This document shows, piece by piece, positions 159 to 49,190 of a DNA stretch of 64,000 nucleotides (positions are counted from its first letter, which is position 1; every line of letters begins with the position of its first letter). Source of the DNA: Candidatus Nomurabacteria bacterium (lineage in GTDB: Bacteria > Patescibacteriota > Minisyncoccia > Phycocordibacterales > UBA9973); contig JAHFNJ010000005.1 in NCBI GenBank assembly GCA_023267375.1, positions 1,285 to 65,284 on the forward strand. Reading direction: 5' to 3'. The notes beneath the pieces were generated by a model. That model worked only from the letters and a program-made list of their open reading frames with translations, searched no databases and was not told where the DNA came from. Made by a program: the position numbers and the translations under genes.

Positions 159-206
159 GAAGCAAGAGTGCTATACAATAAGTAATGCATAGAGGATTAT
201 ATTTGA

Positions 207-2507: not shown

Positions 2508-2542
2508 CGGTAAGAAGTAAAAATTTTTTTTCTAATGGTACA

Positions 2543-3508
2543 ATGAAGTACGTGGTTAAACAGCCTTATCACAATACTGCCGGTTTTACGTTAATTGAGC
2601 TCATGCTTGCCGTGGCGCTTTTAGGACTCGTGGCACTCGGTATTTTTTCGGGCGTTTTGTTTGGACAACAAAGTATTACCAATGCTGGTACGCGCAACCG
2701 TACCACAGCTGTTGCGAATGCTACACTTGATATCGTACGCGGGTTGCGCAGTCAGATTTTTGACACCAATACCATACTTGCTGATGGGACGTATGGACTA
2801 GAGAGAAGCACCGGGCGGTGGTTGCTCGATGTGAGCAATTACGGCACAGGGGATACAAACGATTCGACGGGGCTCTATCGGGAGATTGCCATTGATCGAT
2901 CCACCAACCCAGATCAAGCAAAAATAAAAATAACAGTCTGGTCATCAGGAGACAGCAATAGTAGTACCACCCAACCACTCTCTGTTTCCACTATTGTTTC
3001 AAATTGGGAGTCCTTTGTTGATCAACAGCAAGTCTCGCAAGATTCAGCGCTCTCGTTTGGAGAAGGTACTACGACCGGTTTTACGTATGGCATTGTGCAA
3101 TCGTTTGTACCAACGGTGAGTTCTATTTCGGGTGTACGTTTGTACAAAAAAGCAGACACAGGATCTTTTACTGCTGGCGTTCAAGTTTCAATATATGCTG
3201 ATGCTGGTGGAGTCCCAGATATTGGTAGCCTTGTCACGCAGCAGAGTGGGACTTCGTTGGAACTTACTGATTGGTGGGCAAGTCTCGATGTCGGCGTTTT
3301 TTCTGTCGATTTACCTGATGCTGGTTTGACTCCTGGGAATACATACTGGATCGCTGTGGAACCGACTGCTGTTGATATTTCTGGGTCGACGCATCCAAAT
3401 CTTGGTGTCTATTCATCTGGTGGATACGGGGATGTTGAAACGTATAATGCCGATGATGGATGGAGTGTTCCAACAGGGGAGAGTTTTTATTTTGAAACAC
3501 TGTATTAA
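2543..3508 (+). CDS. Prepilin-type N-terminal domain protein (minor pilin candidate) with C-terminal domain shared with upstream ORF
   Basis: 321 aa. N-terminus is ...TAGFTLIELMLAVALLGLVALGIF (prepilin cleavage/methylation motif). C-terminal ~145 aa align with the C-terminus of ORF 207-2507 (QSFVPTV..G..L....TG...G..V.I.AD.GG.P....G.TY...VE.T). Confidence 0.6.
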   Translation: MKYVVKQPYHNTAGFTLIELMLAVALLGLVALGIFSGVLFGQQSITNAGTRNRTTAVANATLDIVRGLRSQIFDTNTILADGTYGLERSTGRWLLDVSNYGTGDTNDSTGLYREIAIDRSTNPDQAKIKITVWSSGDSNSSTTQPLSVSTIVSNWESFVDQQQVSQDSALSFGEGTTTGFTYGIVQSFVPTVSSISGVRLYKKADTGSFTAGVQVSIYADAGGVPDIGSLVTQQSGTSLELTDWWASLDVGVFSVDLPDAGLTPGNTYWIAVEPTAVDISGSTHPNLGVYSSGGYGDVETYNADDGWSVPTGESFYFETLY

Positions 3509-3513
3509 AATAT

Positions 3514-4815
3514 ATGGATACTCAAGCAAATAATAATAAAAAATATTATCGCAAGATTTTAAAGAAGAGAATGAAGCCTAGCGCTACAGGCTTTACGCTC
3601 ATGGAAATCATGCTCTATATTGCTGGTCTCTCACTTATTGTGCTCGCCATTTCCGCTTTGTATGTTATTACGCAAAAAACGAGAATTAAAACGGAGGCGA
3701 TTACCGCAGTAGAAGATCAAGGAGTCTTTATTTCTGATTTTATTACACACAAAATCCATGACGCTGTTAGTTTGACAACGCCAGCTACTATTGGGGCAAG
3801 CGCGTCCTCGCTCCAATTTGTGACATCTACTGGTACCAGTGCCACTATTGGTGTCGACACTGATAGTGGCATTCCGTATTTCCAAAATAGTACGACGTTT
3901 AATTTGTCGGATGATAGGGTAAAGCTTTCCCCTCGCATATATGCTATCAGCGAGAGTTTATCGTTGCTAGAGTACGATAATGGATGGAAAAATAAATTCT
4001 CCATCGATTGCTGTGGACTTGTGCATATAGCTTCTGATAAATATGGAAACTTATATATCTCAATAGGGGACGAAAACAAAGTATTTAAATATAATGGAAA
4101 AACTGTAAGTGCTCTTGGAGATGCTAGTGACGGGTTAAATTATCCCATAGGGATGGCTGTCGATTTTTTCGGGAATCTCTATGTTGCGAATCGTGATAGC
4201 AGTTCAATAGTAAAGTATGATGGTGCTTCTTGGAGTGAATTTGCAAATGCGGGAGATAATATAAGTGTGCCCACGGGTGTGGCTATTGATTCTCAAAATA
4301 ATATATATGTAGCAAATATCAATAGTTCTGATAATACAATTCTAAAATATGATGGTATCTCCTGGACTAGTATTGCTTCGGTTTCGGATTTTGGCACAAC
4401 CCCACTTGATATTGCTGTTGATTTATTGGATAACGTATATGTGAGTATTCCTGGAGCGGGGGCAATTATGAAATATGATGGACTTTCATGGGTTGCTATC
4501 GGTTCCCCTAGCGATGGTCTAACATCACCTAGTAGTATTTCTATAGATGCATTTAATAATGTATATGTAAATAATCAAGAAGGCTATGGTTCCATTTTAA
4601 AATACGATGGCTTATCATGGGCCACGATAATACCCGAAAGTAGTGATACCCCTCTATCTTATGGGATTGGTGCGGTTGGTCCCATAACATTTACTCGTGA
4701 TTCGGCAGATACTATCTCATATCGTTTTACGCTTAGTTCCAATACGACCAATACTGGCAATGAATATCAATATTCAAAAACATTTACCGGTACCGCATCA
4801 CTTCGGGTAAACTAA
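3514..4815 (+). CDS. Prepilin-type N-terminal domain fused to NHL-repeat beta-propeller
   Basis: 433 aa. N-terminus is ...TGFTLMEIMLYIAGLSLIVLAISALYV (pilin-like). C-terminal half has 5-6 NHL-type repeats (NLYVANRDSSSIVKYDG; NIYVANINSSDNTILKYDG; NVYVSIPGAGAIMKYDG; NVYVNNQEGYGSILKYDG). The 3' half is AT-rich. Confidence 0.6.
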   Translation: MDTQANNNKKYYRKILKKRMKPSATGFTLMEIMLYIAGLSLIVLAISALYVITQKTRIKTEAITAVEDQGVFISDFITHKIHDAVSLTTPATIGASASSLQFVTSTGTSATIGVDTDSGIPYFQNSTTFNLSDDRVKLSPRIYAISESLSLLEYDNGWKNKFSIDCCGLVHIASDKYGNLYISIGDENKVFKYNGKTVSALGDASDGLNYPIGMAVDFFGNLYVANRDSSSIVKYDGASWSEFANAGDNISVPTGVAIDSQNNIYVANINSSDNTILKYDGISWTSIASVSDFGTTPLDIAVDLLDNVYVSIPGAGAIMKYDGLSWVAIGSPSDGLTSPSSISIDAFNNVYVNNQEGYGSILKYDGLSWATIIPESSDTPLSYGIGAVGPITFTRDSADTISYRFTLSSNTTNTGNEYQYSKTFTGTASLRVN

Positions 4816-4838
4816 ACAATCGTTATGTTATATACTGT

Positions 4839-5801
4839 ATGTATCGAATGAACATTACTACGTCAAATACTACTGGTGGATATATTGCCCTTATGACGGT
4901 TATTATTGTGGCGACAGTTATTTCTGCTATCAGTGTGTCGATGCTTGCAAAGGGGACAAGTAGTTCCCAAGAAAGTTTGTCCGCATTACAGTCACAGCAA
5001 TCTCTTGCCTATGCAAGTGGGTGTATCGAAGCAGTACTCCTTGATTTAAAAACTGGCTCTACAACAGCCAACCAATATTTCCCTTCAGCAGATTTGTATC
5101 CGCTCACTGGAGTAGATATTAATGCTTTAGTAACACAACCTGTGTTACTTGAAAATCCAAATGGTGATGATTGCACCTATGCACTCGATTTAACAAATTT
5201 CTCTCAATTGAATACGCTGGCAACTGGTTCGATTACGGCGACAGGTTTTTCTGGTCCCGTCTCGAGTCAGATCGTCGCGACATTTTCAGGTAATCTCGAA
5301 AGTACTGAACCGATGATTATTAGTAACCTGTCCATCACTACATGGCATGAAAAGCCATATTTAAGTTTAAGTGTTTCCGATTCAAACGATGTTTTTGCTG
5401 TTTGGGAAGAAGACTCAGGAGATGTTCGTTGTGATGATTTGTCGACTGTCTGCGCAAAAACCTACACGATCGCAAACAATGGCGACAGTACGTTGACCTA
5501 TGATGTCACTGCGGATAAAAGCTGGGTCGTATTAGGTGGTGATCCATCGACGGGGACGTTGGGTGGTGGGCAGACTGCCACGATTCAAGTTTCTATTTCA
5601 ACCGATACATTACCTGATACACTGGCAACATCACCAACGTATCCAACGACGCCGATTGCAACTGCGACAATACAATTTGGTTTTGTGAGTTATCAAAATG
5701 GTGCCGGCGCAACAACACGCACGGTCAATTTTATGGTGCCTTCCGGGGTGACTGTCGGGAAGGCTGGTGCTACCATAGAAGGACTAGTTGCTATAAGATA
5801 A
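4839..5801 (+). CDS. PilX-like minor pilin / pilus assembly protein
   Basis: 320 aa. N-terminus is ...GGYIALMTVIIVATVISAISVSMLAKGTSSSQESLSALQSQQSLAYASGCIEAVL, which resembles the PilX N-terminal domain architecture (short leader, hydrophobic helix, then conserved A/E/G-rich segment). The rest is Thr/Ser-rich. Confidence 0.45.
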   Translation: MYRMNITTSNTTGGYIALMTVIIVATVISAISVSMLAKGTSSSQESLSALQSQQSLAYASGCIEAVLLDLKTGSTTANQYFPSADLYPLTGVDINALVTQPVLLENPNGDDCTYALDLTNFSQLNTLATGSITATGFSGPVSSQIVATFSGNLESTEPMIISNLSITTWHEKPYLSLSVSDSNDVFAVWEEDSGDVRCDDLSTVCAKTYTIANNGDSTLTYDVTADKSWVVLGGDPSTGTLGGGQTATIQVSISTDTLPDTLATSPTYPTTPIATATIQFGFVSYQNGAGATTRTVNFMVPSGVTVGKAGATIEGLVAIR

Positions 5802-5804
5802 AAC

Positions 5805-8800
5805 ATGGCTGAAACATATACAATTAGAAATGGTGCGCTCAAGAAAGTGTTTTCTTTTTTTTCAAAGCGCAGCAAACTCTTTTTTACCATAGGGGTTTGT
5901 ATGTTTCTTTTTCTCGCCTCACCACACTCGGCATTTGCGGTGAATACTTGTGTTTCAAATGCAAGTGGTAACTGGAATACTGCAGCGACGTGGACTTCTT
6001 GTAGTAGCACTGTGCCACAAACAGGGGATTCAGTAAGAATTAGTAGCGGTCATTCAGTGGTAATGGATGTCGATACACCAGTACTTGGAAATGTGACAGT
6101 AAGAGGAACACTCAATACGTCAGATGGTGTAACGAGTCATACTCTCTCAGCTTCTCAGCTTTTTGTTGGAGAAAGTCTCGGAGGATATAACGGTACCTTT
6201 ATTGCTAACTCTTCTACTATCAATCTTTCAGGGACATCTGCTGTGTTGAGTATTCAAACAACTAGTAGTATTTTTACCTATGGCACTTCTACTGTAAATT
6301 TCACTGGTAACAGTGTTTCAGGTATGATTAATTTAGCATCTTCAGGTTCAGTTACCTTGTATAATGTAAACTCATCAGGAACCGGCACAAAGACAATAAG
6401 CTTAGCGAACGCTACCATCACAATTGCTAATGTCTTTACTATTTCTGCAGGCACTGTTGCGTTTTCAACAGCTGTGACCTCTGCGAACCTCATACTTTCA
6501 GGCACTACGGGTACACCACTTAATCTTACTGGTGGAAGTTTTACGGCCACAGGGAACAACACTACCGTTACGTATTCTGGAAATAATGCCGCGGGTAATA
6601 CCACTGTTGCCGCAGCTACATATGGCTCTTTGACTTTAAATAACAGCAGTGAGAGGTATCAACTTGGCGGAGATATTACTGTGGGTGGTACAACTATTAT
6701 ATCGGCCAGCACCGAGTTTACTTCGAGTGATGGGACAGATCATAACTTAACCACTGGCGGTCTTGTTATTTCCTCAAATGCGCTCTTCCTCATGAATAGT
6801 TCGACTATTACTATTACAGGTAATGCAAATACTGTTGCTAGTCAATTTACAAATTCTTCCAGTCGCCAAGACGCGATTGCTGCCGGAACCTCTACTATTA
6901 AGTTTACTGATACAAGTGTCTATTCTAAAACAATGAGCTCTGCTACTGCCACCTTTTATAATCTTTGGATAACTGGAACTGGAACTGGAACATATACTAT
7001 TACTGGGAGTGGTAGTAGCTCTTTTACTTTTAACGACATAAAAGATGATAATACTTCTGCGCATACGGTTAGTTTAAATTCAACCATATATGTAAACACC
7101 TTTAATGTTTCTGGGGCGGATAGTTCGCATAAAATTTCACTTACAAAGGCTGGTGGGGCAGGTGTTCTACATAAGACGAGTGGGTATGTAAGTATTGACT
7201 ATGTGAATATCGCGAACCTTACAGCTCAAGGTGGTGCTGCGTTTTATGCTGGTTCACACAGTACTGATAACGGAGGTAATTCTGGATGGATTTTTGGAGA
7301 TCCTTCATGCACAGCAACAACAAGCGGTGATTGGAATACGGGAGGGAATTGGACTGGTTGCTCGGGCGGTGGCGGTATTCCAGGAACATCAGATAACGTG
7401 ATAGTTCCTTCTGGAATAAATCTCACACTGAGCACGAACACAGCTACACTTGGAAATGTAAACGTGGCTGGCTCGATTGACACAACTGGCTCAAACTACG
7501 CAATCAATGCAGCGGGGCTTGTTATAAGTTCAACAGGTACAGTTATTGCAAATGGTTCAACTATTACACTCTCAGGTACGGGGGCGGCATTTTCTCTTTA
7601 TGGGGGGATATTTAGTGCCGGAACTTCAACAATTAATTACACAAACAGTTCAAGTGCTGCTAAAGCATTTACGGGTGGCAACGGAACATTTAATAATGTT
7701 ACTTTTACTACCGGTAGTACAGGAACATATACTATTACGGGTAACAATACATTCAACATTTTCTGGATTACTGGAACAGGGACAGGAACGTTTACATTTT
7801 CTAGTTCTTCCAATACTTTTACTGAACTAAAAGATGATAATACTTCTGCTCATTCCATCTTTGGAAATTCTTCTACGCAAACAGTGACAACTTTTTCTGT
7901 ATCGGGTGCCGATAGTTCGCATAAAATAAACTTTGGTTTAAACGTTTCAAAATCAAGTGGGGTTGTTGTTGCAAATTACCTGACTCTTACTGGTAGTGTT
8001 GCGAGCGGTGGGGCCTCGTGGTATGCCGTAAACAGTAATAATGGGGGCGGTGGAACATCAGGTTGGGTTTTTATTAGTGGTTGTGTAGCGATAACAACAG
8101 GAAATTGGAATACGGGAAGTAATTGGAGTGGTTGTACTGGTGGAGGAGGGGTTCCGGCGGCTGCGGACACTGTCACCATTGTATCTGGTGTAACAACTAC
8201 ACTTGATGTAGCGACTCCTGTTGTCACTGGCCTCACTGTTTCTGGCACGCTTGATACTAGTGTCACAAATTATGCACTCAATACAACGACACTCACCATT
8301 AGTTCCGGGGGAACGCTTACTGCTAATGGTTCAACCATTACACTTTCTGGAACTTCTGGAACGCTGTTTACAAACTCAGGTACTTTTACTGCAGGTACTT
8401 CGACGGTCGATTTCTCTGGAGCGAGTTCCGTAACTCTTAATTCTGGATCAATTACATTTTATAACCTCACTGTTTCTGGTGGCACTGTTGCAACAGTCAA
8501 AACACTCGGCGCCGCCACTACGCTTGCCTCTGGTGGTACGCTGACTGTTTCTGCGGGGACATTTGATCCAAGTACGTATCTTGTTACTGGTAATGGTTCA
8601 AACACTCTGGTTGTGGCTGGTGGAGCGGTTGCTCGAGTGAAAGCATCTACGTTTACAGGGAATTATTCATCGGGTTTCAGTAGCACTTCGTTTGCCGCCA
8701 ATTCCACTATTGATTACACCTTAAACGGTACGCAGACAGTTGATAGCACTATAAGTTATGTTAATTTGACGGTTTCAACGGGAGGAACAAAATCGTTGAA

Positions 8801-23515: not shown

Positions 23516-23570
23516 AGTAGCATATCTCTACAGTGAAAAAAAGTTCCGTTTGTTGCAGAAAACCTTATTT

Positions 23571-23580
23571 TTGCTATACT
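23571..23580 (+). promoter_or_regulatory. Putative promoter -10 (TGcTATACT) for the tRNA-fMet transcript
   Basis: ttgcag-N16-TATACT with an extended TG. It lies 20 nt upstream of the tRNA start. Confidence 0.35.
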
Positions 23581-23600
23581 GCGTGGACGAGTTTTTACAT

Positions 23601-23672
23601 CGCGGGGAGGAGCAACGGTTGCTCGTCGGGCTCATAACCCGAAGGTAGTTGGTTCAATTCCAGCCCCCGCAA
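23601..23672 (+). tRNA. tRNA-fMet (initiator, anticodon CAU)
   Basis: Manual fold: CGCGGGG/AG/GAGC-AACGGTT-GCTC/G/TCGGG-CTCATAA-CCCGA/AGGTA/GTTGG-TTCAATT-CCAGC/CCCCGCA/A. It has the C1:A72 mismatch and three G:C pairs closing the anticodon stem, both hallmarks of the bacterial initiator. It is near-identical to E. coli tRNA-fMet. CCA is not encoded. Confidence 0.85.
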
Positions 23673-23678
23673 CAATTC

Positions 23679-23810
23679 AACAAACCGGTAGGTTTGTGAA
23701 TTTTGCGAGGGGAGTAAGCAAATTGATTTGCTTACGTCTGGAATTGAAAGACTTTTCGTTGCCGAGCTTTGCTCGGTCGAAAAGTACCTGGCTACGTGGT
23801 AGCCAATGAA
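23679..23810 (+). mobile_element. 132-bp insert flanked by a 17-bp direct repeat of the tRNA-fMet 3' end; putative small non-autonomous integrative element or remnant
   Basis: agcccccgcaacaattc occurs at 23662-23678 (tRNA 3' end) and again at 23811-27. The insert contains hairpins caaaccGGTAggtttg, gtaagcaaatTGAtttgcttac, ccgagcTTTgctcgg and ggctacGTGgtagcc. It is homologous to the insert at 59306-59412. Confidence 0.35.
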
Positions 23811-23868
23811 AGCCCCCGCAACAATTCGGCACGTGACATGCCCACTATGTCTATTTGCTGAATAATAT

Positions 23869-23942
23869 GTCGGCGTAGCTCAGGTAGTTAGAGCATGGCA
23901 CTCATAAAGCCAAGGTCGGAGGTGCAAGTCCTCCCGCCGACA
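23869..23942 (+). tRNA. tRNA with anticodon CAU (elongator Met or Ile2-lysidine)
   Basis: Manual fold: GTCGGCG/TA/GCTC-AGGTAGTTA-GAGC/A/TGGCA-CTCATAA-AGCCA/AGGTC/GGAGG-TGCAAGT-CCTCC/CGCCGAC/A. The acceptor stem is perfect. There is one A.A mismatch at the base of the anticodon stem. Confidence 0.7.
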
Positions 23943-24135
23943 CCCGTTTAGGCGGAACAAGCAAATTTATTTGCTTGTGTGAGGACTTGCAAGGCGCAGC
24001 TATACTTTGCCAGTAGGCAAAGTAGCGAGCCGGGGTCGAGAAATTTTGCGAGTGACGGCGAGCAAAATATTCGTGACCAAGTCCTAGAAATTAGAAAATT
24101 TTTCTAATTTGTGGTAGTTTAGAGAAGTTATATTT

Positions 24136-24209
24136 GCGGGCGTAGCTCAGCTGGTTAGAGCGCTCCCCTGTCACGGGAGAGGTCGTGGGTTCAAATCCCA
24201 TCGCTCGCG
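24136..24209 (+). tRNA. tRNA-Asp (anticodon GUC)
   Basis: Manual fold: GCGGGCG/TA/GCTC-AGCTGGTTA-GAGC/G/CTCCC-CTGTCAC-GGGAG/AGGTC/GTGGG-TTCAAAT-CCCAT/CGCTCGC/G. There is one G-U pair in the acceptor stem. Confidence 0.85.
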
Positions 24210-24214
24210 CAATT

Positions 24215-24241
24215 AAAAAATCCCCTTTATGGGGATTTTTT
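24215..24241 (+). terminator. Rho-independent terminator after tRNA-Asp
   Basis: aaaaaaTCCCCtttatGGGGAtttttt: stem AAATCCCC/GGGGATTT followed by a T-run. Confidence 0.7.
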
Positions 24242-24389
24242 AATGCGAGCGAAGCAAGACAACTGCTTGTCTTGCGTTGGGATTTGAACAGCGGAGCTAT
24301 GTTTTACAAGCTTGCAAAACAAGCGAGCTGGTGCCCAGACCGAGCCGAGTGGCGACGAGGCGAGAGTCGCGGGAAAATCCCATCGCTTA

Positions 24390-24433
24390 CACACATAAGA
24401 AAATTCCCATAAAAAGGAATTTTCTTATGTGTG
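24390..24433 (+). promoter_or_regulatory. Perfect 18-bp stem hairpin 35 nt upstream of the AsnB-like gene start
   Basis: CACACATAAGAAAATTCC-cataaaaa-GGAATTTTCTTATGTGTG: 18/18 complementary pairs with an 8-nt loop. No clean T-run follows, so it is more likely a regulatory or protein-binding structure than a terminator. Confidence 0.4.
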
Positions 24434-24468
24434 GTCGAAAATATTTTTTATCTGCTATAATTCTCAAC

Positions 24469-27400
24469 ATGTGTGGCATTACTGCAGTTTTCAATTCTAG
24501 TAACTCAGAATTAAAAGCCAATAAATCTCTAGAAAAAATCCAACATAGAGGAGGTAGTACTTTTGAGCTGGAAACATTTCCAAACGCAACTATCGGCGCT
24601 AATCGTTTGCCTATAGTTGGAAGACTCTCTGGAAAGCAACCTCTCCATAATGAAGACAAGACTATTTTTGCAGTTCAGAATGGTGAAATTTTTAATCATA
24701 AAGAATTACGTGCTGAACTTGAAAAACTGAATCATGTTTTTTCATCTGAATCAGATACAGAGGTTCTCGTGCATGCGTACGAAGAATGGGGATCTGAAAT
24801 GGTATATAAGCTGGATTCGGAGATGTATGCATTTATTGTATACAACACAAAAACTAAAGATATCTTCGCCGCTCGTGATCCACTTGGAGTAAAACCTTTT
24901 TATTACACAAAAACTAAAGATGGAGAAATATTATTTGCTTCAGAGTTGAAGCAGCTAGTGCAATTTGAAAACGTAACTACAGTGAATGAATTTCCACAAG
25001 GTAGCTATTACTTCAATGGAAAATTCACTAAATACTTTAAAATAGAAGATCCAAAAACGAAGCTTTCCGAAACTTCCGCTATTCGTTTGCTTGAAAAAAA
25101 TATTGTTGAGGCAGTGAGAAAACGAGTAGATACAGATTTACCTATCGGTGTCTTTTTAAGTGGAGGAGTTGACAGCTCTCTTGTTATGGAAATCGCGACG
25201 CGTTTTCATCCGGATGTCACTGCTATTATTTTAGGAAATACCGGTTCTTCGGATTATGAATTTGCTCTACGTCTCTGTAAGGACCGTGGATACAAATATC
25301 AGATAGTATCTCCAAATATCGACTATAAACAAGAGCTTGATGAGGTACTCTATTACCTGGAAACATATGAGCCATTGGTGATTCGGCAAGGATTTGCCAA
25401 CTGGATTTGTTCTCGTGAAGCACAGAAGCTCGGCTTGAGCATTGTTCTTGTTGGCGAAGGAGCTGATGAATTGTTTGCTGGATACAATGAGTTTTCTGCT
25501 CTGTCAGATAATAATATAAATAAGGGGTGTAAAATGCTTACTGAAAATCTTGGCAAAGGCCATCTCAAGCGAGTTGATCGTGGGGCGATGCGTTTTACCG
25601 TAGAAGTAAGATCTCCCTTGTTAGATACCAAAGTCATTGATACCGCGTTTAAAATCAAAGGAGATTTAAAAATTAAAAAAGAAAATCATCGTGTTACTAC
25701 AAAATATATTCTTCGCAAGGTGGCTGAAAACTTTCTACCAGACTACATTGCATGGCGCTATAAGATGCCTTTTGCTAATGGAGCCGGAATGAATGTGGGT
25801 TATAACTATAAATCTGGCGATGGTGCGCTTGGAGAAATAACTAAATCATACAAGACTACAATTGATTCAAAAACCGCAAAAGAATTTAAACTCGAAACCC
25901 CAGAAGAGAATTATTACTTCCAAAAGTTTAAGGAATTTGGCTACGCAAAGCTTGCCGAAGCAAAGGACCGAATAATAGTAAAAGACATTCTACAAACCCT
26001 CAATACCTCAAAAAAGCAGAGGATTGTTGTGGCAGAGTTCGGAAAGTTAGCTCTTTATTTTCCTGTATATTTAGCTGCACAAAAGAAAATTTTTGATATG
26101 CATGAGTTGGAGGTTGATTTCATTGCAACTGGTGGCGACGATAAAACATACGCGACCCTGTTGAACAATTCAGGACAAATAGGTCTTTCTGACCCTCTAT
26201 TCGCAATGTTTGAAGACGGAATAAACATGAATGGATACGGTGAAATAATTGGAGAGTTGGTTCACTCAACTCCAATTGTTGCAGTAACACTTAACCCAAA
26301 GATTACTATCAATTCACTTCAGGATTTTTCTCAATATAAGGTTGGATCTTTTCAAAAATACTCCACGACAAACACCGTAGCTTCGTATCTTTTGAAAAAC
26401 CAAAACATTTCTGCCTATGACTTTAAAGAGTTTCCAAGCAAGCTAGTTGATAGAGAGATCGATATCGCCGTAGTACTGCTTGAACAAGCACTTAATATCG
26501 AAGCATTAGGTGGCAGAATCGTACACGATTTTAGAAACGATATGTCTCAATACCTATTTTCTGGTTTTACAATTGCTTCGACGTTACCTAAAAATGTAAG
26601 GGGTAAACTTCCTAGTTTCACTTCAGCTATTAAAGAAGCTTTGAAGTACATCAAATTCAATCAAGCAGATGCTGTTGCTGAATTTAGAGCATTGTTCCCA
26701 GAGTTGATAAACCCAGAAAAAGTATTACTTGAATACCAAAAGTTTTGGGTCCAGAGTCTTAAAATCAACAGAGAAGACTATCTCAAGTCGCACACTACGT
26801 GGAAAAGCTTGTACCCAAACATACTTAAGAATCATGACCTCCCTTACTACCGAAGTTATTCAGACGCAGATAAAATCCTAGATACGATAAATGCCCGGGC
26901 AATTCGTAGAGAATATCCATATCGTGAAGATAAGCTTATTGAACTAATAAATAAAAAAATCAGCACAAAAGAACCACTTACTTTTTTTGGTTTTTGGGGT
27001 GCAGGACCAAAAAAAGATACGGATGATCGCGATAAACGAACCTTGGACTATCTCGCTCAGTACATCTCGAACTTAAACAAAGTATATAAAAATGGAGTTT
27101 CTGTGACTTTTATATTAGCGGACAAGCATGCTGAAAATAACGAGTACGACAAATCAAATATTGGCCCATACATTCAACAAGTAAAACAAGAGATGGCAAA
27201 TCGTGGGTTTAAAACGGTTTTACTGTCCGATATCTGGAAAAAATATGACCTTACCCGCGATAAAGTTGTTTCCACACTTAATTCCAAGCCAAAAGGATGG
27301 TGGCAGAAGATTTCCATTGCAAAAAAACTAGAAGAGAAATCCAATGAATATTTCAATGGAGCTGACAAGTTACTTGGTGCACAGCGCTATTATGTATTAA

Positions 27401-27561
27401 GAGATCTAGAAAAAAGAATACTAAAACAAGAGTATCCGGACTCAATATTCTTTGTATATGGAGACAGTTTTGCCCAGCAAATCTATCCGGATATGCCTAC
27501 TCTGTATTTCTTTACTGAAAAGATCTATTACGGCAATTGTCCTTGGTTTAATCTTGATTAG
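24469..27561 (+). CDS. Asparagine synthetase-like class II glutamine amidotransferase fused to a ~500-aa C-terminal extension (NMT1/THI5-like periplasmic-binding-fold segment plus unknown domain)
   Basis: 1030 aa from the MCGITAVFN start (Ntn Cys2 nucleophile). The PP-loop is VFLSGGVDSSLVM and the AsnB C-domain is ...GEGADELFAGY.... Residues ~560-800 (...IVVAEFGKLALYFPVYLAAQKKIFDMHELEVDFIATGGDDKTYATLLNNSGQIGLSDP...) resemble SsuA/NMT1-type binding domains. The last ~200 aa are unassigned. AT-rich (~35% GC). The track start at 24277 is an upstream extension through the hairpin. Confidence 0.7.
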   Translation: MCGITAVFNSSNSELKANKSLEKIQHRGGSTFELETFPNATIGANRLPIVGRLSGKQPLHNEDKTIFAVQNGEIFNHKELRAELEKLNHVFSSESDTEVLVHAYEEWGSEMVYKLDSEMYAFIVYNTKTKDIFAARDPLGVKPFYYTKTKDGEILFASELKQLVQFENVTTVNEFPQGSYYFNGKFTKYFKIEDPKTKLSETSAIRLLEKNIVEAVRKRVDTDLPIGVFLSGGVDSSLVMEIATRFHPDVTAIILGNTGSSDYEFALRLCKDRGYKYQIVSPNIDYKQELDEVLYYLETYEPLVIRQGFANWICSREAQKLGLSIVLVGEGADELFAGYNEFSALSDNNINKGCKMLTENLGKGHLKRVDRGAMRFTVEVRSPLLDTKVIDTAFKIKGDLKIKKENHRVTTKYILRKVAENFLPDYIAWRYKMPFANGAGMNVGYNYKSGDGALGEITKSYKTTIDSKTAKEFKLETPEENYYFQKFKEFGYAKLAEAKDRIIVKDILQTLNTSKKQRIVVAEFGKLALYFPVYLAAQKKIFDMHELEVDFIATGGDDKTYATLLNNSGQIGLSDPLFAMFEDGINMNGYGEIIGELVHSTPIVAVTLNPKITINSLQDFSQYKVGSFQKYSTTNTVASYLLKNQNISAYDFKEFPSKLVDREIDIAVVLLEQALNIEALGGRIVHDFRNDMSQYLFSGFTIASTLPKNVRGKLPSFTSAIKEALKYIKFNQADAVAEFRALFPELINPEKVLLEYQKFWVQSLKINREDYLKSHTTWKSLYPNILKNHDLPYYRSYSDADKILDTINARAIRREYPYREDKLIELINKKISTKEPLTFFGFWGAGPKKDTDDRDKRTLDYLAQYISNLNKVYKNGVSVTFILADKHAENNEYDKSNIGPYIQQVKQEMANRGFKTVLLSDIWKKYDLTRDKVVSTLNSKPKGWWQKISIAKKLEEKSNEYFNGADKLLGAQRYYVLRDLEKRILKQEYPDSIFFVYGDSFAQQIYPDMPTLYFFTEKIYYGNCPWFNLD

Positions 27562-27629
27562 CTAAACTTGGGGGTATAGATATCTCGGGTGTTTTTTTGT
27601 TTGCATTTCATATATACATATGCTAATAT

Positions 27630-27920
27630 GTGCATATGTCTGATTTATGTAAAGAAATAGCCAAGATGGGCAAGGGGATAGGGAACGAGAACCGTTTCCG
27701 TGTCCTTGAAGCAATTATGAAAAAACCGCAAACAGTAGGGGAGATTGCGGTGAAGGTAAAACTCCCGCAGCCCGCTGTCTCGCAACATCTTAAAATACTC
27801 AAATCCGCAAATTTAGTCGAAGATGTGCGGTGTGGAAAAACAGTAGTGTATACAGTAAACGTCGCTTACATGGCTTCACTTCTGAGAAAATTAACAATTG
27901 GATTACCTAATAAAAAATAA
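27630..27920 (+). CDS. ArsR/SmtB-family winged-helix transcriptional regulator
   Basis: 96 aa. ...ENRFRVLEAIMKKPQTVGEIAVKVKLPQPAVSQHLKILKSANLVEDVRCGKTVVYTVN matches the ArsR HTH signature. Confidence 0.6.
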   Translation: MHMSDLCKEIAKMGKGIGNENRFRVLEAIMKKPQTVGEIAVKVKLPQPAVSQHLKILKSANLVEDVRCGKTVVYTVNVAYMASLLRKLTIGLPNKK

Positions 27921-27921
27921 T

Positions 27922-28539
27922 ATGAATTACACTACATTAGCAAACAAAGAAACAGTACAAAAAGTTGCCGATGCGCTTGCGCTCAGGAACGTAGAGGCTA
28001 TTGTTGTAGAAAATGGTGTAGCGGCAGTTGCGAAACTCAAAGAGCTTATTCCCGCTGGAACTTCTGTCATGAATGGATCCTCAGTAACACTTGAACAGAT
28101 CGGCTTCGTCGATTATTTAAAAGGAGATCAGCATGGTTGGAACAATTTACACAAAGCTATTGTGGAAGAAAAAGATCCTGCCAAACAAGCGGCGTTAAGA
28201 AAACAAGCTTTGCTGTCTGATTATTATCTAGGTAGCGTGCATGCTCTTGCTGAAACAGGCGAATTTGTCATTGCTTCAAACACTGGTAGCCAGTTGCCGC
28301 ATATTGTTTTCAGTTCTGCCAATCTTATTTTTGTGGTGAGTACGAAGAAAATTGTTCCAACACTCTCCGATGCTATGCAGCGACTCATGGAACACGTTGT
28401 TCCACTAGAAGATAAGCATATGCAAGAAAAATACGGTGTTGGCACGGCCGTTAATAAGATTGTTACTTTCAACAACGAGAATCCCATGATGGGAAGGAAG
28501 GTGCGAATGATATTGGTAAACGAGGATTTTGGCTTTTAG
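27922..28539 (+). CDS. LUD-domain protein (YkgG/LutC family)
   Basis: 205 aa from the ATG at 27922, which immediately follows the ArsR stop. ...AETGEFVIASNTGSQLPHIVFSSANLIFVVSTKKIVPTLSDAMQRL... matches the LUD/DUF162 core (ETG..V......G..R.LP..HI.V....KIV). Confidence 0.55.
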   Translation: MNYTTLANKETVQKVADALALRNVEAIVVENGVAAVAKLKELIPAGTSVMNGSSVTLEQIGFVDYLKGDQHGWNNLHKAIVEEKDPAKQAALRKQALLSDYYLGSVHALAETGEFVIASNTGSQLPHIVFSSANLIFVVSTKKIVPTLSDAMQRLMEHVVPLEDKHMQEKYGVGTAVNKIVTFNNENPMMGRKVRMILVNEDFGF

Positions 28540-43053: not shown

Positions 43054-46035
43054 ATGATTTCACGAATCTATGTCGCTCAAAAAGCGATAGATAGCCGTGC
43101 CAAAGTGTTGCAAAATTCCTGGAATAAATTGGGTCTTTCTGGTCGCGTGACGGGTGTGACATTGCTTGATTCGTACACCATCCACGCTTCGCTTACATCT
43201 TCGCATCTCAAAAAAGCAGCTTCTGCGCTTTGTAATCCCTCACTTGAAATTGCGACTATCAGCAAGTTGCCGAAAGTTGCCTCGTATACGTATGTCATTG
43301 AAATCGGCTTTATGCCAGGGGTAACAGACAATGTTGCTAAGACGGCAGAAGAGGCGATCGCGGACACGCTCCATCGACCCTTTAAAAAGGGTGAAGCAAT
43401 TTATACCTCAAAAGTTTTTTTTGTTTCAGGAACACTTTCCAAAAAAGATGCTGAACTAATCGCCGGATCACTCCACAATCCGCTTATTGAGCGTGCTGCT
43501 ATCTTTTCAAAAAATGAAATTGCCAAGAAGGGAACATTGCCACTTGTGGTACCAGAAGTGGTACTACCAAAACGTACGCCAGTCATCCCTGTATCGCTCG
43601 CCTTGCCGGACGAAGAACTCATTCGTATCGGTAAAGAGGGTATCTTTGATGCTGAAATCGGTACGCGTCGCGGTCCGCTTGCGCTTGATCTTGCTTCAAT
43701 GCGTGTTATTAAAGACTATTTCAAAAAACTGAAACGCAATCCGACCGACATTGAGCTTGAATCGCTTGCGCAGACGTGGAGCGAGCACTGCAAGCACACT
43801 ATTTTTGCGAACTCGATCGACGACATCAAAGATGGTTTGTATAAAACCTATATCAAAGGCGCGACGAATATTATCCGTCAGAAAAAAGGAACAGATGATT
43901 TTTGTCTCTCTGTTTTCTCTGACAATGCTGGCGGTATTATGTTTGATAATGATTATTTGGTAACGCATAAAGTTGAAACGCACAACAGTCCTTCAGCGCT
44001 TGATCCGTTTGGTGGGGCCATCACTGGTATCGTCGGTGTGAATCGCGATACGATCGGTTTCGGTCTGGGAGCTAAACCTGTCGCAAACTGCTACGGCTTT
44101 TGTTTCGGTGATCCGTTCGATACGCGTCCGCTCTATCGCGATAAAAATCGCACACAAAAAATGCTTTCACCCCGCCGCATTATGGATGGGGTAATCAAGG
44201 GTGTGAATGTCGGCGGCAACTGCTCAGGCATTCCAACCTTAAACGGTTTCGTGCGATTCGATGACCGTTTCCGCGGCAAGCCACTCGTCTTTGTGGGAAC
44301 AGTAGGACTCATGCCGCGCGAGAAAAAAGGAAAACGGCTTGATGAAAAAGAAGCGAAGGCTGGCGACTACATCGTGGTGGTTGGTGGACGTGTGGGTGCC
44401 GACGGTATTCATGGGGCGACATTCTCTTCAGTGGTGATGGATACATCGTCGCCAGCAACTGCAGTGCAGATCGGGGATCCCATTACCCAGAAAAAATTAT
44501 CTGACGCGATTGTGAAAGAAGCGCGTGATCTTGGACTGTACTCAAGCATTACCGACAACGGTGCTGGCGGTATTTCTTGTTCAGTCGCAGAAATGGCAAA
44601 GGAGTGCGGCGGGGCGAAAGTACATCTCGAAAAAGTGCCGCTGAAGTATCCTGGCCTTCAGCCATGGCAGATTTGGATCTCTGAATCGCAGGAACGCATG
44701 ACACTTTCGGTGCCGAAGAAAAAGTGGAAGGCATTTCAATCGCTTATGAAAAAGCGCGGTGTTGAAGCGACTATTATCGGTGAATTCACGAGCTCAGGAA
44801 ACATGGTAGTGAACTGGAAAGGTAAGAAGATTATGGATTTGCCGCTTGAATTTTTGCACAATGGTTTGCCAAAACACCAACTTCAATCTGAGCAAGTTGT
44901 TCACACATACAAAACACCAGCACTTCCGAAAGGTGGCGATCGTACAAAGATACTTGAAGAATTGGTGGCGGTAGGGAATATCGGTAGTTTTGATTGGATT
45001 TCTACACAATACGATCACGAGGTACAGGCTGGATCAGTGGTGAAGCCACTTTCCGGTCGGGGTCGTATCAACACTGATGCACAGGTATTTCGTCCACTGC
45101 TTTCATCAAAAAAAGGTGTCGTTCTTTCGTCGGCGCTCTATCCTTCATATTCTGATCTCGACACCTACGCTATGGCAGCAGCAGCAATTGATACAGCAAT
45201 CAGAAATGCGGTAGCAGTTGGCGGATCGCTCGATATGCTCGCTATCCTCGATAACACCTGTTGGTGCTCCTCGTATGATAAAAATCGCCTAGCAGAACTC
45301 GTGGATGCCATCCGTGCTTGCTACGATGTGGCCGTGGGTTTTGAAACGCCGTTTATTTCCGGAAAGGACAGCATGTTTAATGATTTCAAAGGCTACGATG
45401 GGAAAGGGAATCCAGTAAAAATTTCTATTCCGCCAACATTACTCATTTCAGCTATTGGAGTAATGTCTGATCTCCACAAAGCTGTTACGCCAGAATTTAA
45501 AAATGCTGGTGATTCTATTTACTTACTCGGTGAGACAAAAGATGAACTTGGTGCATCTGAATATTTCAAACTCCTTGCGAAAAAACAGAAGTCTGAAGCA
45601 CTTGGGAAAAATGTGCCGAAAGTTGATATTGAGAAAAACAAAAAGACGTATCGTGCACTTGAAAAGGCAATTGGGCTTGGCTTGGTTGCATCGTCGCTCT
45701 CAGTGACTTCTGGTGGGCTTGCTGCAGCGCTTGGAAAAGCGGTTGTTGGGGGTATGCTTGGTGCAACTATCTCACTCAAGAATCTTCCTGGTGAAAAACT
45801 GTCTGTGGATCAAGCGCTTTTTTCTGAAAGCCAAGGACGTATTTTGGTTTCAGTTGCGCCGCAAGATATTACCGATTTTGAAGAAATCATGAAAGAAGTA
45901 CCACATGCAGAAATCGGTATTGTTTCAGCTGGGCGTGCACTCGTTGTGAATGATGCAAAAAATAAAGTAGTCGTTAAGACAACCGTTGATAAATTGAATA
46001 AGGCGTACCGAATGTTATCAACAAAAGTCGCATAA
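43054..46035 (+). CDS. purL: Phosphoribosylformylglycinamidine synthase subunit PurL with N-terminal PurS-like/N-domain extension
   Basis: 993 aa. Two AIRS/AIRS_C repeats (...GGAITGIVGVNRDT..., ...DNGAGGISCSVAEMA...). The ~220-aa N-terminal region resembles the N-domain of large-type FGAM synthase. Confidence 0.85.
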   Translation: MISRIYVAQKAIDSRAKVLQNSWNKLGLSGRVTGVTLLDSYTIHASLTSSHLKKAASALCNPSLEIATISKLPKVASYTYVIEIGFMPGVTDNVAKTAEEAIADTLHRPFKKGEAIYTSKVFFVSGTLSKKDAELIAGSLHNPLIERAAIFSKNEIAKKGTLPLVVPEVVLPKRTPVIPVSLALPDEELIRIGKEGIFDAEIGTRRGPLALDLASMRVIKDYFKKLKRNPTDIELESLAQTWSEHCKHTIFANSIDDIKDGLYKTYIKGATNIIRQKKGTDDFCLSVFSDNAGGIMFDNDYLVTHKVETHNSPSALDPFGGAITGIVGVNRDTIGFGLGAKPVANCYGFCFGDPFDTRPLYRDKNRTQKMLSPRRIMDGVIKGVNVGGNCSGIPTLNGFVRFDDRFRGKPLVFVGTVGLMPREKKGKRLDEKEAKAGDYIVVVGGRVGADGIHGATFSSVVMDTSSPATAVQIGDPITQKKLSDAIVKEARDLGLYSSITDNGAGGISCSVAEMAKECGGAKVHLEKVPLKYPGLQPWQIWISESQERMTLSVPKKKWKAFQSLMKKRGVEATIIGEFTSSGNMVVNWKGKKIMDLPLEFLHNGLPKHQLQSEQVVHTYKTPALPKGGDRTKILEELVAVGNIGSFDWISTQYDHEVQAGSVVKPLSGRGRINTDAQVFRPLLSSKKGVVLSSALYPSYSDLDTYAMAAAAIDTAIRNAVAVGGSLDMLAILDNTCWCSSYDKNRLAELVDAIRACYDVAVGFETPFISGKDSMFNDFKGYDGKGNPVKISIPPTLLISAIGVMSDLHKAVTPEFKNAGDSIYLLGETKDELGASEYFKLLAKKQKSEALGKNVPKVDIEKNKKTYRALEKAIGLGLVASSLSVTSGGLAAALGKAVVGGMLGATISLKNLPGEKLSVDQALFSESQGRILVSVAPQDITDFEEIMKEVPHAEIGIVSAGRALVVNDAKNKVVVKTTVDKLNKAYRMLSTKVA

Positions 46036-46037
46036 GT

Positions 46038-47765
46038 ATGGAAACTCGCAACTGTCAAAACTGCAAAAAAGATTTTACGATCGATCCAGAAGATTTTTCT
46101 TTTTATGAGAAGATAAAAGTCCCACCACCAACATTTTGTCCTGAGTGTAGAAATATACGTAGGACTATTTGGAGAAACGAAAGAACTCTCTATAAGAATG
46201 AGTGCAATCTTTGTAAAAAAGGCATTGTTTCAATTTATTCCCCAGATAAACCATACAAGATTTATTGTGATAAATGTTTTCACGGAGATGGATGGGATCC
46301 TTTTGAACACGGTGTCGATGTAGATTTTACAAAACCATTCTTACAGCAATTTATGGAGTTGCAATTGAAAGCCCCCCGTCTCTATTCTCTTGTTTTCCAG
46401 AATCACAACAGCGAATATGTAAACGGTGCCGCATTCAATAAAAACTGTTACTTGATCTTCGTAAGCGATTACAACGAGGACTCGATGTACTCATATTCTC
46501 TGGTAAAATCGAAGAATACGCTCGACTGTCTCAATTCTTCTGAGTGTGAACTGTGCTATGGGGATATCTCATGTAATAAATGCTATCGCGTTATTTTTTC
46601 AGAGGATTGTCAAAATTCACAAGAATTGATGTTCTGCAAGAATTGCGTCAATTGTAGCGATTGTATCCTTTGTGTGAATCAAAGGAATAAGAAATACTGT
46701 ATAGAAAATATACAGTATACAAAAGAAGAGTATCTGAAAAAGAAGGAAGAATTATATACCGCAAGCAGCAAGAGTTTAGATTTACTGAAGAAGAGATTCA
46801 ATGAATTTAAGAAAGGTTCCATCAATAAATATATTAATGGATTCCAAAACCAGGACGTTTTGGGAAATTTTGTAAATAATTCCAAGAACTCAAAATTTAT
46901 TTTTAACTCTGAAAATGTTGAAGATTCAAAGTATATAAATCATGGCAATAAGATAAAATCTGTTTATGATGCGTACGTTGTAGTCGATGGAACTACTGAT
47001 AGCTATGAAATAGTTTCCGCGATTGCTTTAAATAATGTTATTTCTGGGTATTCTATATGGCATGATTACAATGTTTTCTATTCTGATACTTGCGAGAATT
47101 CAAATAATCTATTCGGTTGCGTCGATTTGAAAAATAAATCCTACTGCATACTCAATAAACAATACACAAAAGAAGAATATGAAAATCTTGTTCCTAAAAT
47201 CATCAAACATATGGAAGAGATGCCTTATACAGATAGATTGGGAAGAACGTATAAATATGGTGAATTTTTTCCAGCAGAATTAACCCCATTTTGCTATAAC
47301 GAAACAATTGCCCAGGAATATTTCCCATTAACTAAAGAACAAGCTTTAGAACAGGGATATGAATGGAAAGATAAAGAAGAAAGAAGTTATAAAATCGATA
47401 TCGCATTAGAACATATTCCAGATGTTATTGAGGAAGTAAAAGATGATATTACCAATAAAATAATAGAATGTGGTCATAAAGGAAATTGTAATCATCAATG
47501 TACAGAAGCATTCAAGATAATTGCTGATGAGCTTAAATTTTATAAAAGAATGAATCTTCCTATACCGCAACTCTGTCCTAACTGCAGACATTACGAACGA
47601 TTGTTACAACGCAATCCTCTGAAACTTTGGCATCGTTCTTGTATGTGTTCCCAAGACAATCATGATCACTCAGGAAATTGTCAAAACGAGTTTGAAACTT
47701 CGTATGCCCCAGATAGACCTGAAAAAGTATATTGTGAAAGTTGTTACCAAAAAGAAGTATTGTAA
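46038..47765 (+). CDS. Cys-rich multi-zinc-ribbon protein of unknown function inserted in the pur operon
   Basis: 575 aa, about 45 Cys. Related N- and C-terminal modules: F.ID.EDF.FY.KI..P.P..CP.CR..R.......L......C.........Y.PD.P..I.YC..C. Internal repeats of CxxC...YC(I/L)(E/L)N.QYTKEEY were found. About 30% GC against ~48% for the flanking purL and purQ. The ATG lies 3 nt after the purL stop. Confidence 0.55.
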   Translation: METRNCQNCKKDFTIDPEDFSFYEKIKVPPPTFCPECRNIRRTIWRNERTLYKNECNLCKKGIVSIYSPDKPYKIYCDKCFHGDGWDPFEHGVDVDFTKPFLQQFMELQLKAPRLYSLVFQNHNSEYVNGAAFNKNCYLIFVSDYNEDSMYSYSLVKSKNTLDCLNSSECELCYGDISCNKCYRVIFSEDCQNSQELMFCKNCVNCSDCILCVNQRNKKYCIENIQYTKEEYLKKKEELYTASSKSLDLLKKRFNEFKKGSINKYINGFQNQDVLGNFVNNSKNSKFIFNSENVEDSKYINHGNKIKSVYDAYVVVDGTTDSYEIVSAIALNNVISGYSIWHDYNVFYSDTCENSNNLFGCVDLKNKSYCILNKQYTKEEYENLVPKIIKHMEEMPYTDRLGRTYKYGEFFPAELTPFCYNETIAQEYFPLTKEQALEQGYEWKDKEERSYKIDIALEHIPDVIEEVKDDITNKIIECGHKGNCNHQCTEAFKIIADELKFYKRMNLPIPQLCPNCRHYERLLQRNPLKLWHRSCMCSQDNHDHSGNCQNEFETSYAPDRPEKVYCESCYQKEVL

Positions 47766-47814
47766 AAATGACCGACAACTAATTTCAATGAAAAAAATAA
47801 CCAAAAAAATAAAT

Positions 47815-48591: not shown

Positions 48592-48635
48592 AGCTAGAAT
48601 ATTTTCTTGCTTCATGCTCATAAAAAACCAAAAGT

Positions 48636-49181: not shown

Positions 49182-49190
49182 AATGCTTGT

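Follow-up and report, generated by a model that had tools for sequence, protein, structure and literature searches.

A tRNA-matched structured module after tRNA-Asp, very probably a copy of a modular family 3′ of tRNA and tmRNA genes in Patescibacteria

Tyrosine-integrase islands have their att sites in tRNA and tmRNA genes, with the crossover located in the T loop. A duplicated block that starts in the T loop, together with a tRNA or tmRNA gene as target, is a hallmark of known integration sites. Single-strand integration of a folded hairpin site yields an order in which a target copy (X1) is followed by an inverted arm, a core and a direct copy (X2). Structured RNAs are also found in this neighborhood, and HDV-like theta ribozymes in phages adjoin tRNA genes (PMC10879173).

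The segment that follows tRNA-Asp in the window (the whole 64-kb stretch of Candidatus Nomurabacteria DNA analyzed here) has features of each of these systems. It is very probably a copy of a modular family that folds as a single strand and lies 3′ of tRNA and tmRNA genes, on the tRNA strand, in Patescibacteria (CPR).

The tRNA-Asp repeat and its gene surroundings

The tRNA-Asp (GTC) gene is located at 24136-24210 of the plus strand (ARAGORN; 69.9 bits with the Rfam tRNA model). An earlier note on this DNA reported an exact 13-nt repeat of its 3′ part, and this repeat is real: AAATCCCATCGCT occurs twice in the 64 kb, at 24193-24205 inside tRNA-Asp and at 24375-24387, 182 bp apart. By our own arithmetic, the chance of a second exact copy is about 0.002 (128 kb, both strands). 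Other near matches to AAATCCCATCGCT, at 11875 and 40066, carry two mismatches each, which is the level of shuffled sequence, and the T-arm/acceptor 21-mer of tRNA-Asp has no second match in the 64 kb even with three mismatches. The alignment had been extended 5′ of the 13-mer (gtcgtggg versus gtcgcggg), but this extension is no duplication: AGTCGCGGGA is the 3′ end of a conserved core and is also present in modules after Phe, Arg, Ser and Val tRNAs. The true copy of tRNA-Asp begins at T-loop position 57.

Both hairpins described between the repeats exist, gcaagacaaCTGCttgtcttgc at 24254-24275 (hpA) and gcttgCAAAAcaagc within the core. What had been overlooked is an inverted copy of 16 nt at 24274-24289, 94% complementary to 24189-24204, which is the key to the architecture of the module; an inverted near match to AAATCCCATCGCT at 24273-24285 is likewise part of it. 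Partial 3′ duplicates downstream of tRNA genes do recur in the window, although they number four (after fMet, Met, Asp and Thr-CGT) and not three as first counted. We conclude with high confidence that what had been called a “degenerate copy” of tRNA-Asp supplies one strand of the closing stem in a modular element linked to tRNA and tmRNA genes, and is no scar of a gene island.

The repeats had been taken as traces of an integration hotspot, with the AsnB-fusion, ArsR and LUD genes as an islet beginning at the Asp site. In its conventional form, with attL/attR scars of integrase islands and this islet as the latest arrival, such a reading is highly improbable. The geometry is indeed that of tRNA and tmRNA att sites: the targets are the same, the direct repeat begins in the T loop, covers the 3′ end and may extend past it by a few nucleotides, and the gene is left intact. 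It is as a boundary of the islet that the site fails. The distal att copy expected at about 28.6 kb is absent there and elsewhere in the window, no third copy of the repeat occurs in the window, and repeats 182 bp apart bound no kilobase-scale insert. Unlike att sites, a module measures 90-180 bp, carries neither integrase nor cargo, and holds an inverted copy of the block. Its right-hand copy is preceded by an RNA-like conserved core and not by the left half of a recombinase core site, and its body recurs at nearly every isotype with the arms re-matched. The 169 bp between the Asp repeats are conserved structured sequence common to modules at unrelated tRNAs elsewhere, and other metagenomes show the same architecture at over 100 tRNA loci that represent 17 isotypes. 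In one of the two leading models, discussed below, the 169-bp segment itself would be a tiny inserted element.

A slight dip in GC content at 24-28 kb (0.37-0.39 versus about 0.43) would also suit an islet and is the only positive sign of one; integrase islands do occur at tRNA genes of relatives, among them one (L197) beside an orthologue of the AsnB fusion. That genuine island looks quite different from the tRNA modules of the window; its tRNA-Thr(CGT) is split at the anticodon loop, and two integrase genes adjoin it. The gene surroundings in the window are housekeeping in nature (GyrB, PheRS, ThrRS, pentose-phosphate and purine synthesis), and of the 42 window ORFs that reach 110 aa, the 38 longest have no Pfam match to Phage_integrase, transposase, reverse transcriptase or resolvase families. 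A further point against the island reading is that the AsnB-NMT1 fusion is a widespread full-length gene of CPR and DPANN, with 5848 homologues at E≤1e-30 that are full length and 45-75% identical across these groups. Gene order around ThrRS and the AsnB fusion is not shared with the closest relatives (ThrRS 67% identical, in Paceibacterota MAGs; AsnB fusion 73-75%), and no tRNA is conserved beside ThrRS in 80 GTDB genomes. An exact-protein look-up matched only the genome of this DNA itself. The neighbors of the AsnB fusion vary with each relative, being nrd genes and SecA in L193 and Fic and HAD genes in L196. With neighbors that differ in every relative examined, synteny neither shows nor excludes an AsnB islet.

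Architecture, folding and distribution of the modules

All module features of the window lie on the plus strand. At the Asp locus, X1 (24193-24209) is the 3′ part of tRNA-Asp from T-loop position 57 and the template for both module arms. Between the tRNA and the module stands T1 (24212-24244), a terminator-like hairpin of 14 perfect base pairs (100% complementary) with A and T tracts, which is also the tip of a long palindrome made by X1 and the left arm. The first part of this arm, GCGAGCG (24245-24251), is antisense to the acceptor 3′ strand of tRNA-Asp, and the second part, X′ plus GAA (TGGGATTTGAA, 24278-24288), is antisense to the 3′ strand of the T stem and the T loop. The two parts are separated by hpA (24254-24275), a conserved 9-bp hairpin with a CUGC loop that is placed exactly at the acceptor/T-stem junction of the antisense arm. 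There follows a type-2 core (24289-24374), a three-way junction with two hairpins, P2 (CAGC..GCUG) and P3 (CCC.GAC..GUC.GGG). X2 (24375-24387) repeats tRNA-Asp in the sense direction, from T-loop position 57 into the 3′ strand of the acceptor stem; it pairs with X′ to form helix P1 and closes the junction. An AT-rich hairpin of 18 perfect base pairs (24390-24433) lies 3′ of the module and 5′ of the AsnB-fusion start (ATG 24469).

Modules follow four of the five window tRNAs, namely fMet (23601), Met (23868), Asp and Thr-CGT (59232), while Thr-GGT is without one. Within 130-180 nt, each of the four has an inverted T-loop/T-stem copy (matches at 11/11, 11/11, 15/16 and 12/12 positions for fMet, Met, Asp and Thr-CGT, respectively), a conserved hairpin and a direct copy of the 3′ end. 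The module after tRNA-fMet (23601-23673) is of type 1, spans 23703-23827 and scores 85.8 bits with the type-1 model R1; it consists of acc5′ (23703-23712), hpA (23714-23735), X′ plus GAA (23738-23748), core (23749-23804) and X2 (23805-23827). After tRNA-Met (23868-23945), a type-2 module at 23951-24087 (29.7 bits with R1) comprises hpA (23958-23977), X′ (23981-23992), core (23993-24078) and an X2 with the T part only (24079-24087). The type-1 module after tRNA-Thr(CGT) (59232-59305) extends from 59303 to 59430 and reaches 97.9 bits with R1; its hpA (59325-59344), X′ plus GAA (59346-59357) and core (59358-59412) precede an X2 (59413-59430) that is identical to the tRNA 3′ end at 18/18 positions. 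The fMet and Thr modules, 35 kb apart, have a long identical core: GAAAGACTTTTC ... GAAAAGTACCTGGCTAYGTRRTAGCC.

R1 misses the Asp module, whose core type differs. When the latter was aligned with six metagenome modules (after tRNAs for Phe, Arg, Arg, Ser, Val and Ser), 36-37 columns were invariant, including GAACAGCGGA, GAGCUGGUGCCCAGAC and AGUCGMGGG, and 25 of the 35 predicted pairs had a compensatory change. The type-2 covariance model R2 gives 130.1 bits for the Asp module and 63.5 bits for the Met module, and also matches two GTDB CPR MAGs.

A metagenome scan with the core motif AAAGTACCTGGCTANNNNNTAGCC (19 specified bases) returned 110 stretches. Where enough upstream sequence is available, about 85% of the motif matches have the end of a same-strand tRNA 64-250 nt upstream. 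The isotypes number 17 (Met, Trp, His, Glu, Arg, Gly, Leu, Lys, Ser, Pro, Thr, Phe, Ile, Cys, Val, Ala and Asp), and one module follows a tmRNA gene, its arms matching the T arm of that gene. Conversely, 101 of 142 distinct tRNAs have a model match 0-330 nt downstream, a share that is biased upward, as is the conservation of the motif, by seeding the sample on one exact core motif; 135 of 190 model matches lie within 330 nt downstream of a called same-strand tRNA. R1 finds 119 copies in 0.62 Mb of module loci and none in 1.38 Mb of other genomes or in the 1.2 Mb of GTDB loci L001-L080. The Roizmanbacteria loci L029 and L033 carry no modules. In viral collections the core motif has no match, R1 (0 in 0.70 Mb of viral contigs) and R2 none, and 14- and 16-mers only chance-level matches, which indicates that the element is not phage-borne.

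The order of a unit is constant: a left arm in two parts, L1 and L2 (X′), with hpA between them, then GAA, a three-way-junction core and X2. L1 is the Watson-Crick antisense of the acceptor 3′ strand and discriminator of the neighboring tRNA, and a trailer hairpin stands between the tRNA and L1. L2 is antisense to the 3′ strand of the T stem and the T loop, and is separated from hpA by the dinucleotide GU. X2, the sense copy from T-loop position 57 onward, forms the closing helix P1 with X′. At least three core types exist, and all are three-way junctions closed by P1 that share the hpA-GU-X′-GAA series; GAA makes up the three nucleotides after X′ in 76 of 80 modules. Units occur singly or in arrays of two or three, often of mixed core types (L090, L098, L083, L103 and L105), and the arrays are mosaics that include partial units. 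Of the orthologous tRNA-Glu loci L103 and L136, one has exactly one 125-nt unit more than the other.

The arms of a module match its own neighbor. Across 87 modules, the nine nucleotides before GAA pair with their own tRNA at 7.83 of 9 positions, versus 5.17 ± 0.12 for permuted partners. The acceptor-antisense segment is found at a fixed 33 nt upstream of X′ and matches at 7 or all 8 of its positions in 39 of 80 modules, with permuted partners giving a mean of 4.97 ± 0.08 of 8. The origin of the left arm can be read from 27 positions at which the tRNA stem has a G·U or a mismatch. In 26 of them the arm base is Watson-Crick complementary to the 3′ strand, and in one it repeats the tRNA 5′ strand, which makes the arm a templated antisense and not a duplicated half of the tRNA. 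G3·U70 of tmRNA and tRNA-Ala becomes A-U in the modules, and the initiator C1×A72 becomes U-A; mimicry of the aminoacylation type is unlikely. Where X1 and X2 differ, X′ agrees with X1 32 times and with X2 seven times. X2 is fully intact (13/13) in only 38 of 80 modules, and its decay in many others fits a displaced relic. A terminator-like hairpin separates tRNA and module in 26 of 69 cases and follows the module in only nine of 69. Added helices are found only at loops or junctions, hpA at position 65/66 and hpD at 59/60.

Folding of the modules is supported by covariation. In 53 type-1 sequences, 95% of the cells in the four-helix structure are paired and the covariation score is 0.44, compared with 81% and 0.16 for shuffles; 20 pairs have double changes, and slid controls drop to 36-49% paired. 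Among 110 distinct model-aligned sequences, 28 of 32 pairs have double changes, although such model-fitted alignments lean towards the model; hpA has compensatory changes at all nine pairs. On the tRNA strand, G·U exceeds A·C by 31:4 in hpA, 25:1 in hpC and 65:23 in P1. This places the reading of the fold on the tRNA strand, either as RNA or as that DNA strand, and the strand-specific signal fits folded single-stranded DNA as well as RNA.

Insertion of a folded strand or a switch on the tRNA precursor

On balance we lean towards the view that Patescibacteria have genome-wide “tRNA-templated” structured modules that represent either a new mobile element without protein genes or a new cis-acting RNA switch. 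We favor the former and tentatively regard the module as a small, non-autonomous, structure-dependent insertion or duplication element of a “hairpin att” kind, with the switch as a close rival. In the folded single strand, the stem formed by the left arm and X would be a double-stranded replica of the segment of the tRNA gene from T arm to 3′ end. An exchange at T-loop position 56|57 would then generate the observed order X1 ... inverted arm - core - X2. This may proceed by single-strand recombination, as for CTXphi attP and integron attC, or by strand-switching synthesis that pivots on the terminator palindrome. X1, often with its own T1, would serve as a functional replacement 3′ end that keeps the tRNA intact, and X2 would be the displaced or duplicated old 3′ end, free to decay. 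Local templated correction between the inverted copies could keep the left arm matched to the tRNA. We infer such an exchange, with an enzyme that would carry it out, from the antisense arms copied from the 3′ strand, the tracking of X1 by X′, the decay of X2, the placement of the terminator, the gain and loss of units, their order and their targets. The modules themselves may be selfish or useful.

The closest parallels to this route are CTXphi attP(+), used by XerCD, and integron attC. In both, a single strand folds into two inverted arms that imitate a duplex target, and integration leaves a target copy followed by an inverted arm, a loop and a direct arm. As in the modules, structure is conserved above arm sequence, pairing is strand-specific and tandem arrays occur. 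Unlike these sites, the modules have neither Xer/dif-like nor GTTRRRY cores, and no linkage to IntI or Xer was found. Their arms are 9-20 nt long and tRNA-specific, their loop is a highly conserved three-way junction in place of a variable spacer, and they carry no gene, in contrast to integron units.

Several observations weigh against insertion. The modules have no linked recombinase, HUH or Y1 transposase or reverse transcriptase, and Pfam scans of 38 of the 42 window ORFs found none. They carry no cargo, and neither a free form nor an empty site was seen. In front of X2 lies the core and not a T5′-TTC half site. The sequence contains no integron-like GTTRRRY/RYYYAAC or dif-like cores, the module junctions being ..AATCGAA|AG and TAGCC|GATT. 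It is a further difficulty that an element adapted to one tRNA would have to colonize another without producing a chimeric, dead tRNA. Furthermore, the nucleotides of the core junction are strongly conserved across many environments. Conserved junctions, the placement of the helices and the high density in streamlined genomes make the modules look more like selected RNA than junk.

These last features favor a cis-acting RNA switch or quality-control element on the tRNA precursor, which as a model is possible but somewhat doubtful. Read-through from the tRNA promoter would produce a transcript in which the left arm pairs either with the 3′ half of the tRNA, unfolding its T arm and acceptor stem, or with X2. 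Closure of P1 around a ligand- or protein-binding junction would couple maturation or decay of the tRNA or tmRNA to the state of the core, and different core types in series would integrate different signals. The modules do have riboswitch-like traits, with a conserved junction closed by P1 and an X′ strand that has X1 as an alternative partner. At three of the four window loci, the unconstrained minimum-energy RNAfold structure lies 10-14 kcal/mol below tRNA and module folded apart; there the partner of X1 is the left arm, and that of the tRNA 5′ strands is X2. A switch would also account for the conserved multi-helix junctions with invariant unpaired nucleotides, the covarying stems, the excess of G·U over A·C on the transcribed strand and the extra helices confined to loops and junctions. 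It would likewise suit the invariable location of the modules on the tRNA strand, their density in small genomes and an X′ that tracks the tRNA sequence. Like a toehold, the trailer hairpin directly continues the acceptor pairing.

The position of the modules bears on this likeness, as they lie downstream of the tRNA and often past a terminator-like hairpin. In 38% of cases such a hairpin, with its T run, separates tRNA from module, no promoter-like motif is found 5′ of the module, and the tRNA is transcribed and folded before the switch exists. A switch is also at odds with the frequent degeneracy of X2, with units gained or lost between orthologous loci, with arrays that are mosaics of whole and partial units, and with the absence of a module at some tRNAs, such as Thr-GGT in the window. 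Finally, G·U would be just as good in an RNA helix, and yet the left arm keeps strictly to Watson-Crick pairing with the 3′ strand.

Either option would be without precedent if true. The mobile element would integrate as a folded single strand that imitates the T-arm duplex of any tRNA or tmRNA gene and would re-template its arms; the switch would set the 3′ half of the tRNA in competition with a decoy copy and so gate the maturation of nearly every tRNA. In a large branch of bacteria, almost all tRNA genes, and the tmRNA gene, would then be shadowed by a conserved structured element with arms rewritten to match the tRNA. This would amount to a way for DNA that encodes no enzyme to home to essential RNA genes, or to an added control of tRNA supply where classical regulators are few.

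Shadow tRNAs, repeats and other structured RNAs

In a third reading, the modules would be “shadow tRNAs”, independent genes for small tRNA-like RNAs with the core as functional payload. RNase P and RNase Z would excise them, CCA would be added, and they would be recognized, perhaps even aminoacylated, like the cognate tRNA because acceptor and T stems are shared. Their parts do follow tRNA order, with an acceptor-5′-like strand, one hairpin in place of D and anticodon arms, a T stem, and an acceptor 3′ strand with discriminator. In this arrangement hpA is located exactly where tRNA nucleotides 8-48 would emerge, and copies without an upstream tRNA exist (L118, L036). We nevertheless consider shadow tRNAs improbable. 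In the modules the junction takes the place of the T loop (the elbow), and the stem exceeds a tRNA minihelix by 4 bp. Erased, too, are identity elements based on non-Watson-Crick pairs; no CCA is encoded, and about half of the modules have an X2 whose acceptor 3′ part is absent or degenerate.

Among tRNA-like RNAs, the tRNA-like domain of tmRNA, viral tRNA-like structures (TLS), mascRNA and the bacterial Y RNA YrlA resemble the modules in having acceptor- and T-stem-like helices in tRNA order with a foreign domain grafted on. Unlike them, the modules have a junction in place of the T loop and have lost identity pairs such as G3·U70; their stems are perfectly Watson-Crick to the 3′ strand of the neighbor, and each copy is private to one tRNA gene. 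Theta ribozymes, ROOL and GOLLD are, like the modules, structured non-coding RNAs beside tRNA genes, but they carry no sequence matched to the adjacent tRNA, whereas the modules do. The modules are moreover absent from the viral contigs searched and have no Rfam match at E≤10. With Rfam 15 at gathering thresholds, only tRNAs were found in the window, and nothing credible at E≤10 over 23550-24470 and 58980-59500. A literature search that included literal core sequences found no description of the module, and the tRNA-matched family is apparently undescribed. Its three or more core types are candidates for new classes of ribozyme, aptamer or protein-binding RNA.

A number of known RNAs and elements were compared by eye and rejected. 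Among ribozymes, the hammerhead was dismissed, with junction strands of 5/3/0 nt and no CUGANGA, as were the hairpin, twister and pistol classes. A group I P1/P10 arrangement has no U·G at the would-be splice site and too small a core; an archaeal bulge-helix-bulge intron does not fit a 56|57 junction that is enclosed in a continuous helix. The lower stem of an H/ACA pocket is absent. Box C/D and TIGR units do not fit modules that are without CCA/UG boxes and without a Tas gene (compared with PMC12045711). A primer-binding site of the retrovirus type would have a complement to CCA, and none is present. IS110 bridge RNA and IS200/IS605 ends were set aside, there being no recombinase and the guides being paired and not in loops.

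Among repeats, REP/BIME, ERIC, Correia-type elements and MITEs are likewise short non-coding hairpin units with many copies per genome, which form mosaics or tandem arrays, are gained and lost between relatives and cause assemblies to break. In contrast to these, the modules are tied to one gene class and strand, directly 3′ of tRNA or tmRNA, and their cores are conserved across many lineages with RNA-like covariation. Unlike REP/BIME or MITEs, they take their arms from the neighbor, have no fixed terminal repeats and do not disperse independently of it.

If real, such modules would have practical consequences as well. They mimic att scars and pseudo-tRNAs and can thus mislead the prediction of islands in CPR genomes, and they break metagenome assemblies. 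L134, considered as a tRNA interrupted by a module, proved to be a scrambled locus in which X′ and X2 derive from different tRNAs. The “orphan” copies at L086 and L177 are 100% identical up to the edge of hpA, and some orphan and chimeric copies may be assembly switches at the repeat.

Modules beyond canonical tRNA genes

The structured modules that follow tRNA genes, each built around a three-way-junction core, are also found 3′ of a tmRNA gene. In L108 (3849-4420), a metagenomic stretch compared with the window, the tmRNA gene (Rfam, 132.8 bits) is succeeded by a terminator hairpin and then by at least two modules, which match the T arm of the upstream tmRNA. The G3·U70 pair of the tmRNA acceptor is replaced by A-U in the L108 module. 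A scrambled locus in L134 (9843-10170) holds two tRNA-Pro-like sequences called by neither ARAGORN nor Rfam, one of them with the T loop AGCATTA. Here, the module takes X′, the antisense T-arm copy, from one tRNA and X2, the sense copy, from another. Several “orphan” modules, found without a called tRNA, are preceded at a distance of 60-100 nt by the recurrent motif AGGTTCTAA(C/T) (L088, L104 and L177); Rfam returned no match at these motif regions. A LOOT RNA is present at L184 2011-2130 (Rfam, 75 bits), on a contig that also bears modules.

Outside Paceibacterota, one tRNA-Ser and one tRNA-Leu are likewise followed by an inverted and a direct copy of their own 3′ end, in a Bacteroidota MAG (L072, 8446-8650) and a Peribacteria MAG (L054, 9319-9560), and the core of the latter resembles type 2. 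The module family may be wider than the sampled lineages; alternatively, L072 could be a contaminant of its bin. Contigs frequently end inside or beside a module (many loci, e.g. L097, L110, L131, L158, L160 and L176), and L086 and L177 are 100% identical as far as the edge of the hpA hairpin and divergent beyond it. Modules behave as repeats that break assemblies.

Antisense reading and a module-less tRNA

Read on the minus strand (hpC followed by GGTACTTTTC), the type-1 core scores as a terminator-like hairpin with a T run, at 23788-23806 and 59398-59412 of the window. Such a core could keep antisense transcripts from running into the tRNA genes.

The sole tRNA of the window to lack a module is tRNA-Thr(GGT) (59013-59086; region after the gene, 59087-59231). 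Its trailer contains a weak inverted T-loop-like stretch, tcggattcaacc, at 59133-59144 and aatccg at 59160-59165; these pieces may be the remnant of a decayed module.

AsnB fusion and metabolic genes

The gene at 24469-27561 joins an asparagine-synthase (GATase + Asn_synthase) domain to an NMT1/THI5-like periplasmic-binding-type domain in a protein of ~1030 aa. This architecture is conserved at full length in CPR bacteria and in DPANN archaea (Micrarchaeota, Nanoarchaeota), and its annotation is inconsistent between sources. The closest orthologue (75% identity) is found on the contig of a relative, L197, whose positions 1-7600 are a classical integrative island. There, a 5′ copy of tRNA-Thr(CGT), truncated in the anticodon loop, precedes an intact tRNA-Thr. 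An integrase gene follows, then CTD10, DUF2326 and Abi_C genes, and last another integrase gene, immediately 5′ of the AsnB fusion.

Local GC minima of the window are 0.338 (46001-48000) and 0.373 (26001-28000), against ~0.43. The ORF at 46038-47765 (575 aa) has no match in Pfam. A near-complete purine biosynthesis cluster spans 43054-58182 (FGAM synthase, PurF-like, PurN, PurD, PurK, PurE, PurM, PurC and PurB), accompanied by oxidative pentose-phosphate genes at 38-41 kb. Together, this gene set is a metabolic capacity unusual in a patescibacterium.
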